Shown here one piece after another: positions 27,934 through 37,114 of a DNA stretch of 37,114 nt; position 1 is the first letter of the stretch, and the number at the start of each line of letters is the position of its first letter. The stretch is from a virus (lineage: Duplodnaviria; Heunggongvirae; Uroviricota; Caudoviricetes). The stretch lies in IMG/VR virus record IMGVR_UViG_3300029084_000052, positions 1 to 37,114 of that record; one strand, 5' to 3'. Made by a program: the position numbers and the translations under genes. Below the pieces are notes generated by a model, which saw only the letters and a list, made by a program, of their open reading frames with translations, was not told the DNA's origin and ran no database searches.

Positions 27934-28167
27934 TTAATGCAGCCAGCTGTCGTCTTCCCACACCTTCTGCATAATTTTCATCACTTGTTTTCTTTCTTCG
28001 TCCAGTTGCAATCCGGTCAGTTCCACACCGTTAGAGCTACCTTTGCGGATACGAATTACCGTTTTGGGATACAGAGGACGCAGATTGCGGTAAAGCTCGG
28101 ATTCAAGGGCGTCCAGGGTAGACTGGCTAATCTTCTGCTCTTTATCGATCATTATTTCAATGCGCAT
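27934..28167 (-). CDS. DinI-family protein (damage-inducible protein I-like; 186 Tum C-terminal-domain-like)
   Basis: MRIEIMIDKEQKISQSTLDALESELYRNLRPLYP...KIMQKVWEDDSWLH aligns with E. coli DinI (MRIEVTIAK...ALAGELSRR...ILQETWESADDW) from memory. Confidence 0.75.
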   Translation of the reverse strand: MRIEIMIDKEQKISQSTLDALESELYRNLRPLYPKTVIRIRKGSSNGVELTGLQLDEERKQVMKIMQKVWEDDSWLH

Positions 28168-28178
28168 AAAAAGTCACC

Positions 28179-28367
28179 TCAACTGATGACATCCATTGAG
28201 CGGTTGTATTCGTGGGTTCTGATTTTTGCCATGAGTTCATCTGTTAGTTCAGAAACCCACTGCAAAGCCAGCCCCTTCTCTTCATCACTACACTCACTAG
28301 CCGCTACAAGCTTAAGAAAAAAATCAATGCGCTGGAGCTTCAAAGACTCCAAAAAATAGTCCTGCAT
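28179..28367 (-). CDS. Small 62-aa protein, first gene of the SOS-regulated operon (possible Tum N-terminal-like part)
   Basis: Strong AGGAGG Shine-Dalgarno; lies about 45 bp downstream of a LexA box and 11 nt upstream of the dinI-like gene. Confidence 0.5.
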   Translation of the reverse strand: MQDYFLESLKLQRIDFFLKLVAASECSDEEKGLALQWVSELTDELMAKIRTHEYNRSMDVIS

Positions 28368-28409
28368 CTTTCCTCCTATGACACCAAAGCAATACTGTAA
28401 ATATAACCA

Positions 28410-28425
28410 CTGTTTATATTTACAG
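28410..28425 (-). promoter_or_regulatory. LexA operator (SOS box) inside a 37-bp palindrome
   Basis: CTGTTTATATTTACAG (CTG-N10-CAG) within ATACTGTAAATATAACCACTGTTTATATTTACAGTAT; an overlapping near-match CTGTAAATATAACCAC lies just upstream. Confidence 0.7.
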
Positions 28426-28519
28426 TATATAATAATCTTACTGATGTAAAACGTTTTTTTACGTTCATCAGCCTGATATGCCTGGTATTATTAAGAGCAC
28501 GAATTGTTAACCCGCGTAA

Positions 28520-32825: not shown

Positions 32826-33335
32826 TCACAGCAAACCGAATGAAGCACCGAGGCCAGTAACGGTATCAACTGCACTCGCCATCGCAGGATTAGCCTGTAA
32901 ACGGGCCTGCAATGAAACAGCGGCCAGCGCCATCAGCCGTGTTACAGAGTTAATGCTGCTGATAGCATCACGACGACCTGCACTGGTTTTTACATCGCCG
33001 GATACCGCACCTGCAGCAACACGCCCGATCTCTGCGGTTGCACTCATGACATAATGCGGCAGTTTCTCTTTTGCCACCTCATTAATCGGTACACATGGCA
33101 GGCAGTGAATCTGTGCCAGAAAGCCATCTACCAGCGTTGAATCTTCAGTCAGATCGGTAAGCAACCAGATTTCTGGTGCGGTTAATAAATGAGGTTGAGC
33201 TGGGTTCAGCTTGTTCCGCAGAATCTGTACATTCATGCCTGCACGTTCTGCCAGTTGCACCAGGTTGTGGCGCAGTGCGAATGCACGACAGGCTTCGTCA
33301 AAATGTGGATGTTTGGAAACTTGGTAATCAAACAT
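32826..33335 (-). CDS. cII: CII-type transcription activator, phage 186 type
   Basis: [24 protein letters not shown]...[23 protein letters not shown]... is a close match to 186 CII from memory; 169 aa from the ATG. Confidence 0.8.
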
Positions 33336-33589: not shown

Positions 33590-33684
33590 GATGCAACATC
33601 TCCTATTGGCTTGTGGTGAGCCTGTAGTAATCGTGATAAGTACCCAAATGGGGACAAAATTGATACTAGGATCGCAAAAGAGAT

Positions 33685-34281
33685 ATGTCAACATCAAAGT
33701 ACCCAAATGAGATCAAAATAAATCCCAATAAAGGTGGTAAGGCTGCGATTGAGCGATTAGTCGAAGCTTATGGCTTTACGACACGACAGGCTTTAGCTGA
33801 TCACTTGGAAGTATCAAAAAGCACTCTGGCGAACAGGTATTTGCGGGATACGTTTCCTGCAGACTGGATAATCCAATGTGCTCTTGAAACAGGAACCTCA
33901 CTGAAATGGTTAACCACCGGGCAAGGCCTTAAGCAAAGCTCGCTGACAGCAGCTACAGAAGAGCTTGCCAAGTTTCGCCTTACCGCAGGCAAAATGATTG
34001 AAGATGGTTCATATGTCTTCGATTCATCATTTCTTCCTGCAAATCTTTCATCACCAATTGTTATTCAGGATGGGCTCGTCACATACATTTGTGATCAAAA
34101 ATTTTCTGAAGTACTTGATGGGCACTGGTTAATCAACATCGACGGAACCTATTCCATTCGAAAAATCACAAAGCTTCCAAAAGGTATGATTAAAATTACA
34201 AGTACAGAGAATAGCTTTGAATGTGCATTTTCTGATATTGAAGTAGTTGCTTGTATAAGAAGTACAATAATTTCAAATTAA
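33685..34281 (+). CDS. cI: CI-type immunity repressor, phage 186 type
   Basis: 198-aa ORF with N-terminal motifs (AYGF...QALADHL..S.STLANRY...CALETG.SL.WL.TG.G) resembling 186 CI from memory; divergent from apl. Confidence 0.7.
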   Translation: MSTSKYPNEIKINPNKGGKAAIERLVEAYGFTTRQALADHLEVSKSTLANRYLRDTFPADWIIQCALETGTSLKWLTTGQGLKQSSLTAATEELAKFRLTAGKMIEDGSYVFDSSFLPANLSSPIVIQDGLVTYICDQKFSEVLDGHWLINIDGTYSIRKITKLPKGMIKITSTENSFECAFSDIEVVACIRSTIISN

Positions 34282-34301: not shown

Positions 34302-35978
34302 ATGAATTCATTTTCCATCGTTATATTCTTATTAGCATTTCTCGCCCCCATTCTAGCTGTAATATTATTTAAGCAAAGCAAAAAACATAAAGCGGCTATA
34401 AATACCTTGACAGCTAACAACATAGCCCTTTCCAACCAACTGAAAGAAAATCAAGAAGAATTAGCACAGACTGTACGAGATCTATCAGAGCTTGAAGGAC
34501 GAGCTGCGCCATTATGGCAATACGTAGAATTGCACAGCGCAGTGATGGAAGCAGAGAATAAGATAAAAAATGCAGACTCAATAGCCAGGCAAAAAATAGA
34601 AGAAGCCCAAATAAAGGCTGCTAAGACAGTAAACGAAGCAAATTATCAAGCTCAGATAAAAATAAGCAACGCTAATAGCGAAGCTATAGCAATTACTAAA
34701 GACGCTCGCGATGCACGCCTGAAAGCTAAAGAACGTCTTGATAATGCCAATAGTAAAGCAAATGAGCTGATCTCAAATGCTAATGACAATGCAGTGAAAA
34801 TTATTTCCGATGCAGAAGAAAGAGCAAAAGAGATTGCTGGTTCAGCATATGAAGCTAAAGAGTTTGCAGAAAAATATGAAGCAGTTGCCAAATCAATGAA
34901 AAATAAAATTGAAGGTTATGGTGATGAATGGATCATCCCTAACCGTAGCGTTCTCGATGAATTGGCAGAAAATTATGAGTTTACAGATGCAGGTAAGGAA
35001 TTACAAAAAGCCAGGGAGTTAACAAAATCATTAATAAAAACTAATAAAGCTGCTTCGTGTGATTATGTTGAACAAAACAGGCGTAATACTGCTATCAACT
35101 TTGTTTTAGATGCCTTCAATGGAAGAGTTGACAGTATTTTATCAAAAGTCAAACACAACAATTTTGGAAAACTTTCCCAAGAGATAAAAGATGCGTTTCA
35201 ACTTGTAAATTACAATGGTTCTGCCTTTAGGTCCGCAAAAATAAGTGACATCTATCTTCAAGCTCGACTCAACGAGCTAAAATGGGGAGTTGCAGTTAAT
35301 GAAATTATGCTCGAAGAAAAAGAAGAGCAAAGAAGGATTAAAGAACAACTTCGTGAAGAGGAAAGAGCTCGTAGGGAGTATGAAAAAGCGATAAAAGAAG
35401 CTGAAAAAGAAGAGAAAGCTATTCAGCAAGCTATAAATAAAGCAACAAAAGAGCTTATGCTTGCAAATGAAGAACAACGCTTAGCTTTAGAGCAAAAAAT
35501 AGCTGAACTACAGTTAAAATATGAAGAAGCTGAAGCTAAAAACCAACGAGCTATTTCTATGGCTCAACAAACTAGATCAGGCCACGTTTATATAATTAGT
35601 AATATTGGCTCATTTGGCGAAGATGTATATAAAATTGGAATGACACGCCGCCTTGAACCACTTGATCGTGTTCGTGAACTCGGTGATGCTAGTGTTCCTT
35701 TTTCGTTCGATGTTCATGCGATGATTTATAGTGATGATGCACCATCATTAGAAAATCATCTGCATAAAGTCTTCAACGAAAAACAGGTCAATAAAATTAA
35801 CTCACGAAAAGAGTTTTTCAACGTAAATATTAAAGAAATTAAGTCTGTTATTGAAGATATGAACATCAACGCACAATGGACAATGTTTGCGGAAGCGAAA
35901 GAATATAGAGAGTCACTGGCGATTGAGCAAGAGCGCAAAGCAGCAACTTCCGCCAACGATGAACTGCATGTTGCTTAG
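34302..35978 (+). CDS. Membrane-anchored coiled-coil protein with a C-terminal T5orf172/GIY-YIG-like domain (DUF4041-like architecture); accessory gene
   Basis: N-terminal TM helix, long Ala/Lys/Glu-rich repeats, C-terminal GHVYIISNIGSFGEDVYKIGMTRRLEPLDRVRELGDASVPFSFDVHAMIYS; AT-rich; AAAAGGA Shine-Dalgarno 20 nt after the cI stop. Confidence 0.6.
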   Translation: MNSFSIVIFLLAFLAPILAVILFKQSKKHKAAINTLTANNIALSNQLKENQEELAQTVRDLSELEGRAAPLWQYVELHSAVMEAENKIKNADSIARQKIEEAQIKAAKTVNEANYQAQIKISNANSEAIAITKDARDARLKAKERLDNANSKANELISNANDNAVKIISDAEERAKEIAGSAYEAKEFAEKYEAVAKSMKNKIEGYGDEWIIPNRSVLDELAENYEFTDAGKELQKARELTKSLIKTNKAASCDYVEQNRRNTAINFVLDAFNGRVDSILSKVKHNNFGKLSQEIKDAFQLVNYNGSAFRSAKISDIYLQARLNELKWGVAVNEIMLEEKEEQRRIKEQLREEERARREYEKAIKEAEKEEKAIQQAINKATKELMLANEEQRLALEQKIAELQLKYEEAEAKNQRAISMAQQTRSGHVYIISNIGSFGEDVYKIGMTRRLEPLDRVRELGDASVPFSFDVHAMIYSDDAPSLENHLHKVFNEKQVNKINSRKEFFNVNIKEIKSVIEDMNINAQWTMFAEAKEYRESLAIEQERKAATSANDELHVA

Positions 35979-36035
35979 CAATGTATGTTTCATAGTAATC
36001 ACACATTGATTACTGGTTGTATATACAGTTAAATT

Positions 36036-36061
36036 TAGCCCTCTGATATGAGGGCTTTTTT
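36036..36061 (+). terminator. Rho-independent terminator directly abutting the int start codon
   Basis: tagccctc tgatat gagggct followed by ttttt, with the int ATG immediately after. Confidence 0.65.
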
Positions 36062-37114
36062 ATGGCAGTACGAAAACTCACCACAGGAAAATGGCTTTGC
36101 GAATGTTACCCCGCCGGACGTAGTGGACGTCGTGTGCGTAAACAATTCGCCACCAAAGGCGAAGCTCTGGCTTTTGAGCGTCACACGATGGAAGAAACCG
36201 AAGCAAAGCCCTGGCTGGGTGAATCAGTGGATCGTCGAACACTGAAAGACGTGGTTGAACTATGGTTCAAACTACATGGTAAATCTCTGACAGCTGGCCA
36301 GCATGTCTATGACAAACTGCTGTTAATGGTTGACGCTCTGGGCAATCCCCTTGCAACCGATCTCACATCTAAAATGTTTGCCCACTATCGAGATAAACGC
36401 CTGACAGGAGAGATCTACTTCAGCGAGAAATGGAAGAAAGGAGCAAGCCCGGTCACCATTAACCTGGAGCAAAGCTATCTAAGTAGTGTTTTTAGCGAAC
36501 TATCCCGCCTGGGCGAATGGTCGTATCCGAACCCACTGGAGAACATGCGAAAATTCACCATCGCAGAAAAAGAGATGGCATGGCTTACCCATGAGCAGAT
36601 TGTTGAATTACTGGCTGATTGCAAACGTCAGGACCCAATTCTGGCACTGGTAGTTAAGATATGCTTAAGCACAGGCGCACGCTGGCGTGAAGCCGTAAAT
36701 CTTACCCGCTCACAGGTGACCAAATACCGAATTACCTTTGTAAGAACGAAGGGGAAGAAAAACAGAAGCATCCCTATCAGTAAAGAGCTTTACGAAGAGA
36801 TCATGGCGCTTGATGGGTTCAATTTCTTCACAGACTGCTATTTTCAATTTTTATCCGTGATGGAAAAAACGTCTATCGTGCTCCCTCGCGGTCAACTGAC
36901 ACACGTTCTGCGCCATACGTTTGCGGCGCACTTCATGATGTCGGGTGGAAACATCCTGGCCTTACAAAAAATTCTCGGACATCACGATATAAAAATGACG
37001 ATGCGTTACGCACATCTGGCACCGGATCATCTGGAAACGGCGCTCCGTTTCAATCCTCTGGCAACGCTGCCAAGTGGCGACAAAGTGGCGGCAGCGGTTG
37101 GCATTACCCCGTAA
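36062..37114 (+). CDS. int: Tyrosine integrase, P2 Int family
   Basis: 350 aa with LSTGARWREA and HVLRHTFAAHFMMSGGNILALQKILGH...MTMRYAHL motifs matching P2 Int from memory; the stop codon is the last three bases of the window. Confidence 0.85.
   Translation: MAVRKLTTGKWLCECYPAGRSGRRVRKQFATKGEALAFERHTMEETEAKPWLGESVDRRTLKDVVELWFKLHGKSLTAGQHVYDKLLLMVDALGNPLATDLTSKMFAHYRDKRLTGEIYFSEKWKKGASPVTINLEQSYLSSVFSELSRLGEWSYPNPLENMRKFTIAEKEMAWLTHEQIVELLADCKRQDPILALVVKICLSTGARWREAVNLTRSQVTKYRITFVRTKGKKNRSIPISKELYEEIMALDGFNFFTDCYFQFLSVMEKTSIVLPRGQLTHVLRHTFAAHFMMSGGNILALQKILGHHDIKMTMRYAHLAPDHLETALRFNPLATLPSGDKVAAAVGITP

Follow-up and report, generated by a model that had tools for sequence, protein, structure and literature searches.

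In phage 186, the start codon of int overlaps the stop codon of cI (TAATG), the integrase gene has no regulatory region of its own, and SOS control of phages of this type has until now been known only via the tum antirepressor. The insertion sequences IS10 and IS50 are reportedly protected from outside activation by fold-back inhibition of read-through transcripts (Davis, Simons and Kleckner 1985; Krebs and Reznikoff 1986). Other recombinase genes are controlled at their promoters: those of integron integrases are LexA-repressed (Guerin et al. 2009; Cambray et al. 2011, PMC3108266), and lambda int has the CII-activated promoter pI (summarised in PMC7708051), while for 186 only one promoter is stated to be activated by CII (PMC7708051). 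A defence hotspot between cI and int has been noted in K139-like Vibrio phages, in a report with no mention of LexA or of a terminator (PMC9122126). Here we describe the region just 5' of int in a stretch of Caudoviricetes DNA of 37,114 nt (IMG/VR record IMGVR_UViG_3300029084_000052, positions 1 to 37,114), hereafter called the window. Judging from comparison with its relatives, a hairpin that stands directly before int in the window is the 3' end of a conserved int regulatory module of ~85 nt. In the reading that we favour with moderate confidence, this hairpin would insulate int from RNA made upstream, and a LexA- and CII-responsive promoter of the module would supply the integrase.

The region has the organization of a 186-type switch, with cII and apl on the - strand, followed by cI, an accessory gene and int on the + strand. 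The window and 186 belong to one phage family, have cI, apl, cII and a tum-type SOS operon as common switch genes, and carry identical CII half-sites at the establishment promoter pE. The position of int, on the other hand, differs from that of a coupled cI-int operon, where int begins at or a few nt after the cI stop with no signals between. In the window, int is separated from cI by 1.78 kb, with the defence gene and the terminator in between, and a module of its own precedes it; the gap of 1780 nt contains one gene, the promoter-like module and the terminator. Since the accessory ATG (34302) follows the cI stop (34281) by 20 nt and the consensus scan found no terminator-like site between them, the accessory gene is probably co-transcribed with cI.

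Anatomy of the hairpin and its occurrence in relatives

The stem is formed by a 5' arm AGCCCTC (36037-36043) and a 3' arm GAGGGCT (36050-36056) that enclose the loop TGATAT (36044-36049). A run of six T (36056-36061) directly abuts the int ATG (36062-36064), so that the last T is the base before the start codon; the N-terminus of int aligns from residue 1 with its homologues, including 186 Int. In the consensus scan, this hairpin (7 pairs, 5 of them G-C, a loop of 6 and the tail TTTTTATGGC) was the best terminator-like site on the + strand between 30000 and 37114 and the only one on that strand between cI and int. Folding of the 56 nt from 36020 to 36075 gave -16 kcal/mol (z = -3.2), a stability equalled by 0 of 200 dinucleotide shuffles, and the 36-nt segment from the -10 hexamer described below through the ATG folded at -13.3 kcal/mol (empirical p = 0.002 against 500 dinucleotide shuffles). 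The original prediction of a hairpin and T-tract ending directly before the int ATG is therefore confirmed to the base by sequence, scan and folding.

The hairpin begins 58 nt 3' of the accessory gene stop, in sense orientation and at the end of the cI-accessory unit. A G+C-rich stem-loop followed by a U-run, located on the sense strand at the 3' end of a unit, is the usual make-up of an intrinsic terminator, and transcription may thus terminate behind the hairpin at 36037-36056. The resemblance to canonical Rho-independent terminators extends to the 7-bp stem, the 6-nt loop, the six U and the place after a gene. Unlike them, however, the hairpin lies 3' of a promoter -10 and holds the Shine-Dalgarno (SD) sequence of the next gene, and relatives keep it without the U-tract. 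Indeed, the int SD, GAGGG (36050-36054), is located within the 3' arm, 7 nt 5' of the ATG, so the 3' arm of the inverted repeat covers the SD, as in genes protected from read-through. The feature is thus real and more than a terminator. An Rfam scan of the region returned sub-threshold matches only. The match to RyhB (RF00057) at 35995-36063 scored 30 bits against a gathering threshold of 55 (E ~1e-3) and was rejected. It extends over the promoter and LexA-box region as well as the terminator stem, and rests on this stem and its U-tract; most probably, the terminator produced a chance likeness.

The 150-200 nt 5' of the int ATG were compared in 157 int loci, 77 from one-per-species genomes and 80 from IMG/VR. 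These loci fall into two groups, with int either at or just after the cI stop or preceded by the conserved block of ~85 nt. The first comprises 186 and 16 loci with a gap of 1-10 nt, all of them devoid of the module. The original prediction, which had int of 186-type phages transcribed together with cI, is correct for 186 itself, as attested by its cI stop/int ATG overlap. In the second group, the module is present and the cI-int gap ranges from 385 to 3286 nt, with ~38 different lengths. The genes in these gaps, co-oriented and mostly defence-like, belong to at least 20 unrelated families; the cargo identified with PADLOC or by family includes Old (E = 9e-235), AbiU, HEC-01, PDC-S20, PDC-M11 and PDC-M18, and a gene for a 63-aa open reading frame (ORF) and many other genes are also found 5' of hairpin and int. 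Similarity between the window and relatives with other cargo starts only 2-3 nt after the accessory stop codon, and the hairpin together with ~60 nt 5' of it recurs with all these spacings. A megablast search against phage records retrieved two phages with the same cI-cargo-int arrangement as well as 13 records of the 4LV2017-like kind, in which the match does not begin until window position 36050. Klebsiella phage 4LV2017, which carries other cargo, has ATGCTCTCC-ACT-GGAGGGCAT-TTTTT-ATG at this point, that is, a hairpin of different sequence in the same place. The int 5' region was found in 1,120 of 5,426 complete E. coli genomes; the lineage with the module is present in about a fifth of them.

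Between types the hairpin keeps its position with arms of different sequence. When 45 distinct segments running from the -10 through the ATG were folded, 38 proved more stable than 99% of their dinucleotide shuffles, with 17 different 5-bp stem cores. Examples of the paired arms are AGCCCTC/GAGGGCT, ATGCTCTCY/GGAGGGCAT, TCACATTCTC/GAGRATGTGA, ACCCCCTT/AAGGGGGT, CTCTCCTAA/TTAGGAGAG and TCCTCCATT/AATGGAGGA. An SD-like run lies within the 3' arm in 39 of the 45, and in 29 of them the sense RNA is more stable than the antisense through G-U pairs (p = 0.03).

The T-tract has a narrower distribution. All modules with an int at least 82% identical carry 5-7 T among the last 8 nt 5' of the ATG and, two weak exceptions apart, no other upstream terminator. 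When the identity of int is 78% or less (Kluyvera, Serratia, Yersinia, Rahnella, Pantoea, Brenneria and others), the SD-containing hairpin is kept and the T-tract is absent, the T-less hairpins often running right up to the int ATG. In 12 of 20 relatives devoid of the T-tract, a canonical terminator (e.g. GCCCGC-loop-GCGGGC-TTTT) is located just 5' of the module's first half-site. Two functions thus seem to recur, one that stops upstream transcription and one that pairs the int SD, and a single hairpin appears to combine them in the Escherichia/Klebsiella branch. This pattern argues that separation of int from upstream transcription is a selected function. Together with the terminator anatomy and the position at the end of the unit, it supports the earlier suggestion that the terminator may uncouple int from the repressor transcript.

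A promoter-like element, a LexA box and CII-type half-sites

The block 5' of the hairpin contains two hexamers of a putative sigma-70 promoter, here called Pint (Table 1). The -35 hexamer is TTGATT in the window and TTGACC or TTGACA in most relatives, while other types have TAAAAT, TAGAAT, TAATAT or TATAAA as their -10 in place of the TTAAAT of the window. The spacer measures 17 bp in the window and 16-17 bp across relatives. The distance from the -10 to the ATG is constant among relatives, with implied leaders of 17-24 nt, and in the types examined the hairpin starts 0-3 nt 3' of the -10. From the position of the -10, the start of Pint is predicted at ~36041 (range 36040-36043), within the 5' arm. 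RNA beginning at 36041 is predicted to be unstructured (z = +0.9), and read-through RNA keeps the hairpin in its centroid structure. Averaged over the 45 types, the unpaired probability of the ribosome-binding site (RBS) is 0.29 in read-through RNA versus 0.49 in the promoter's own transcript, which suggests occlusion of the RBS in the former.

The spacer between these hexamers is occupied by a candidate LexA box, and the motif CTG-N10-CAG is found at this position in 123 of the 157 int loci. Scores were obtained with a position-specific scoring matrix (PSSM) built from 20 SOS boxes of E. coli. The sequence TACTGGTTGTATATACAGTT at 36011-36030 was the top site of the 37-kb window, with 25.0 bits; the E. 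coli sites of the matrix score 12.9-28.9 bits, and 50 shuffles of the window reached a maximum of 21.1 bits (mean 11.3). As a positive control, the annotated LexA site of 186 p95 was recovered by the same PSSM at 27.7 bits, and as a negative control the int-cI-cII region of 186 gave no site above 7 bits (maximum 6.9). The box has the CTG-N10-CAG palindrome and the A/T-rich centre of the gammaproteobacterial type (consensus TACTGTATATATATACAGTA) and scores within the range of known sites, so that 36011-36030 is a candidate for LexA binding. It lies between the conserved -35 and -10 of a predicted promoter, where bound LexA would exclude RNA polymerase. CTG-N10-CAG was also considered as a CI operator and rejected, as no such motif occurs in the pR/pL interval of the window (~33600-33690).

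Upstream of the -35, two inverted half-sites resemble the CII site of 186. With up to 2 mismatches allowed, ATGTWTG-N12-CAWACAT matches the window at this stretch alone (35981-36006). The window half-sites have one deviation from ATGTWTG/CAWACAT, and in many relatives they are perfect. Among 67 distinct relatives, the half-sites ATGT(A/T)TG and CA(A/T)ACAT are conserved, while the sequence of their 12-13-bp spacer varies freely. The annotated CII site of 186 pE, ATGTTTG-N13-CAAACAT, is composed of the same half-sites. The int-proximal site and the predicted start also share the geometry of pE: the right half-site abuts the -35, and 35 nt separate its end (36006) from ~36041, as in 186 pE (site end 2436, promoter feature end 2401, in locus positions). 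CII itself is phage-encoded, as a homologue of 169 aa at ~32826-33335 on the - strand; 104 of the 123 loci with the module have a cII homologue within their locus sequence, and cII is annotated in 4LV2017. By these likenesses, 35981-36006 is a candidate site for CII binding.

Proposed control of int and rival explanations

The favoured reading can be laid out as follows. Transcripts from pL in the lysogen, from pE during establishment or from any cargo promoter would carry both arms and form the hairpin, so that RNA polymerase would terminate in the U-tract next to the int ATG, and any read-through RNA would keep the int SD paired. Through termination and SD pairing, Int would be insulated from the constitutive lysogenic transcript. 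Int would instead be supplied from the sigma-70 promoter of the module. Since the predicted start at ~36041 lies inside the 5' arm, the mRNA of this promoter could not form the hairpin and would have a free leader of ~21 nt. Given the strong LexA box in its spacer, LexA is predicted to keep Pint silent in a lysogen without DNA damage and to release it during SOS; Int would then rise together with the LexA-controlled tum-type antirepressor, when excision needs it. CII would probably boost Pint at establishment, when integration needs Int, like lambda pI. This model builds on direct observations, namely the sequence anatomy, the conservation irrespective of cargo and the motif scores with their controls.

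The closest functional analogue of the hairpin would be the protection of IS10 and IS50, where an inverted repeat likewise pairs the RBS only in transcripts started upstream and the element's own promoter starts in or after the 5' arm. In contrast with these elements, whose protected gene encodes a transposase, the gene here is a prophage integrase, the U-tract of the Escherichia/Klebsiella branch should also terminate transcription, and the start is predicted. The parallel with integrons is a tyrosine recombinase gene with a canonical LexA box across its promoter, here a predicted one, which would tie recombination to SOS; the recombinase clade and the type of element are nevertheless different, and the box of the module comes together with an activator-type site and a hairpin specific to upstream transcripts. 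Like lambda pI, a second CII-type site would give a burst of int at establishment apart from the repressor-maintenance transcript, but 186 CII is unrelated to lambda CII and pI has no LexA box. In addition, pL-derived int of lambda is curbed by sib retroregulation 3' of int, whereas the hairpin here lies 5' of it. The module is a new combination built from known kinds of elements, and the literature searched contained neither LexA control of, nor a CII site at, int of P2/186-like phages.

Several points weigh against this model. The sigma-70 promoter scan did not call Pint, because the tool requires an A at position 2 of the -10, which TTAAAT lacks. The half-sites do not have the 13-bp spacing (20 bp centre to centre) of 186 pE: their spacer measures 12 bp in the window, as it does in 41 of the 67 distinct modules, and 13 bp in 23 of the 67, while all the pE sites found, including those of the same phages, are 13 bp apart. 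A change of 1 bp in this spacing is reported to lower the affinity of CII markedly (Shearwin and Egan 2000). The 12-bp spacing, as compared with 13 bp, could mean weaker or graded CII binding, or another binding protein. Moreover, since the -35 is already good, activation of Pint may be unneeded. Joint action of LexA and CII on one promoter may be hard to reconcile as well: if LexA fully blocks Pint on infection, the Int required for integration must come from read-through.

Other such points concern the RNA structure. MAFFT combined with RNAalifold gave no consensus structure for the 45 distinct segments; in the alignment, types A and B are one column out of register, and the arms cannot be aligned by sequence. 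A covariance model of the window hairpin type recovers only that type and the upstream terminators of two Pantoea loci. In the closest type, pairing reaches 97.6%, with one compensatory change (C-G to U-A, in locus L146) and two G-U substitutions, but this covariation is weak and not significant, since 44 of 500 shuffles reach one compensatory pair. The case for a conserved structure is therefore built on the stability of each sequence relative to its shuffles and on the fixed position. Finally, the gain in RBS accessibility predicted for the window variant is small, from 0.22 to 0.32.

The hairpin could also be a plain intrinsic terminator of the cI/accessory transcript, acting as an attenuator, with int made from read-through only and the LexA- and CII-like motifs driving no int promoter. 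The clear terminator anatomy agrees with this, 186 does make int from the cI transcript, and no promoter was called here by the scan. However, 123 of 157 loci keep the -35, the CTG-N10-CAG and the -10 at fixed spacing, and relatives without a T-tract still have a hairpin over the SD. Some relatives, furthermore, have a separate terminator 5' of the module, so their int would need a further promoter, and read-through RNA with a paired SD would be a poor template. We thus give this explanation little credit; if the terminator function alone were real, the finding would be ordinary.

Similarly unlikely, in our view, is a hairpin located in the own 5' leader of int, with transcription starting 5' of 36037 and the structure acting as a translational brake or a premature terminator relieved by temperature, a protein or a small RNA. 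The presence of the SD in the 3' arm, the most conserved property of the hairpin, would fit such a brake; 5' stem-loops are, as a matter of general knowledge, common mRNA stabilisers, and the start at ~36041 is a predicted one. Yet with the sole promoter-like hexamers that are conserved, transcription would begin 7 +/- 2 nt 3' of 36034, within the 5' arm. Since the hairpin begins 0-3 nt after the -10, there is no room for a Pint start 5' of it, and inspection of the conserved block by eye, which was not a systematic scan, revealed no alternative -35/-10 pair with acceptable spacing.

Two further explanations are very improbable. The first, a DNA palindrome bound by a protein such as Int, Apl/Cox or CI, would account for the perfect 7-bp inverted repeat beside int, and recombination or regulatory proteins do bind near int in some elements; but pairing persists although the arms are wholly different from one type to the next, and it includes G-U pairs possible in the sense RNA only, which favours a role at the RNA level on int-sense transcripts, and the Int, IHF and Apl sites of 186 attP are annotated beyond the int stop and orf69, on the far side of int. 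The second, import of the terminator as part of a PD-Lambda-1 defence cassette, was raised in the original prediction and would agree with its place 58 nt after the PD-Lambda-1 gene stop and with the lack of any other terminator behind this gene; it is not borne out, because the same or an equivalent hairpin stands behind all the unrelated cargo listed above, at ~38 spacings, and the int-proximal block begins 2-3 nt past the cargo stop.

Having weighed these alternatives, we retain the module with an upstream-specific hairpin and a LexA- and CII-responsive Pint as the preferred explanation.

Genetic setting and wider significance

Table 1. Features of the int regulatory module and of the surrounding 186-type switch (window positions)
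Feature	Position	Strand	Evidence or remark
LexA box(es) of tum/DinI-type SOS operon	28393-28427	-	PSSM 24.6 bits (28408-28427) and 16.8 bits (28393-28412), overlapping
CII-type site ATGTTTG-N13-CAAACAT, perfect	33309-33335	+ (reads towards cI)	apl/cII boundary, the pE position in 186; sole zero-mismatch match in window
cI repressor, 186 type	33685-34281	+	first gene of lysogenic transcript; Pfam Phage_CI_repr E = 8e-32, Phage_CI_C E = 4e-27
Accessory (cargo) gene, PD-Lambda-1-type anti-phage protein, 558 aa	34302-35978	+	Pfam DUF4041 + T5orf172; PADLOC E = 4.7e-120
Inverted half-sites ATGTATG (35981-35987) and CACACAT (36000-36006), 12-bp spacer	35981-36006	+	resemble 186 CII site ATGTTTG-N13-CAAACAT
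-35 hexamer TTGATT of proposed Pint	36006-36011	+	position and sequence conserved, 67 distinct modules
Candidate LexA (SOS) box TACTGGTTGTATATACAGTT, core CTG-N10-CAG 36013-36028	36011-36030		25.0 bits; fills promoter spacer, abuts -10
-10 hexamer TTAAAT of proposed Pint	36029-36034	+	T(A/T)A(A/T)(A/T)T-type hexamer after CAG in most relatives shown
Hairpin	36037-36056	+	arms and loop by sequence read, scan and folding; present in centroid of read-through RNA
int Shine-Dalgarno GAGGG	36050-36054	+	sequence read; SD-like purine run in 3' arm, 39/45 relatives
T-tract, six T, terminator tail	36056-36061	+	sequence; in all modules with int at least 82% identical, in none more distant
int, tyrosine integrase of P2/186 family, 350 aa	36062-37114	+	Pfam Int_N, Phage_integrase; 54.5% identical to 186 Int

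The window also contains the distal parts of the switch. 3' of the LexA boxes at 28393-28427, the SOS operon encodes ORFs of 62 aa (28179-28367) and 77 aa (27934-28167) on the - strand, the latter of which reads as DinI-like by eye. Since a LexA box of 24.6 bits, the second-best site of the window, precedes this tum-like operon, the phage is already LexA-wired, as 186 is. The tum-like protein seems to be split over these two ORFs, 186 Tum being a single protein of 146 aa. At its other end, the window stops at the int stop codon (37112-37114), and most IMG/VR relatives end there or 3 nt later; attP/attR and any signals 3' of int therefore fall outside the window.

The interval from cI to the module (34302-35978 in the window; loci L007-L160) is a hotspot of co-oriented defence genes. 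Elsewhere it contains KAP-type PDC-S20, tandem copies of PDC-M11, an AriA/OLD-like ATPase of 662 aa and several unknowns, and its ~38 gap lengths occur beside near-identical integrases.

Some records of relatives deserve a separate mention. In 4LV2017 (L001/L162, KY271398.1), the deposited integrase coding sequence (102-1082) omits the first 72 nt from the conserved MAVRKLTTGKW start onwards, and integrase homology runs to 1154; the late annotated start thus hides the hairpin/SD/ATG arrangement in this record. Two short contigs labelled 'MAG: Bacillota bacterium' (L005 and L069; MAG, metagenome-assembled genome) carry this enterobacterial prophage integrase, which in L005 is 99% identical and accompanied by the module; their labels probably reflect mis-binning or contamination. 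The record of Klebsiella phage KP12 (L002, OM835953.1) gives the taxonomy as Vequintavirinae, yet the sequence of this clone, in which ogr, cII, cI and int are present, is that of a 186-like Peduoviridae prophage, a fragment of which was probably co-assembled. Two modules are degenerate: L017 has GTG in place of the left CTG of its LexA box, as well as a damaged 3' arm, and in L070 a deletion removes the -35 and the left half of the box, with the hairpin and T-tract kept. These may be decaying prophages.

On a broader scale, it is possible, though we put this forward tentatively, that a 186-like lineage moved int out of the repressor operon, to make room for a defence-gene hotspot, and placed it under a three-input control of ~85 nt composed of LexA, CII and a hairpin formed in upstream transcripts only. 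A terminator located 3' of a promoter yet invisible to the RNA of that promoter would be an unusually compact insulator. Short, self-contained and reporter-friendly, the module could serve as a compact part combining an insulator with an inducible promoter. If the proposed control is true, the textbook picture of P2/186 phages, with int riding on the repressor transcript, would be revised for a very common prophage lineage. The prophage integrase would be under direct SOS control, beside the antirepressor route, and the 186-type CII would have a second target, analogous to lambda pI. It would also explain how a defence hotspot between cI and int can be expressed in the lysogen without unwanted Int and prophage instability.

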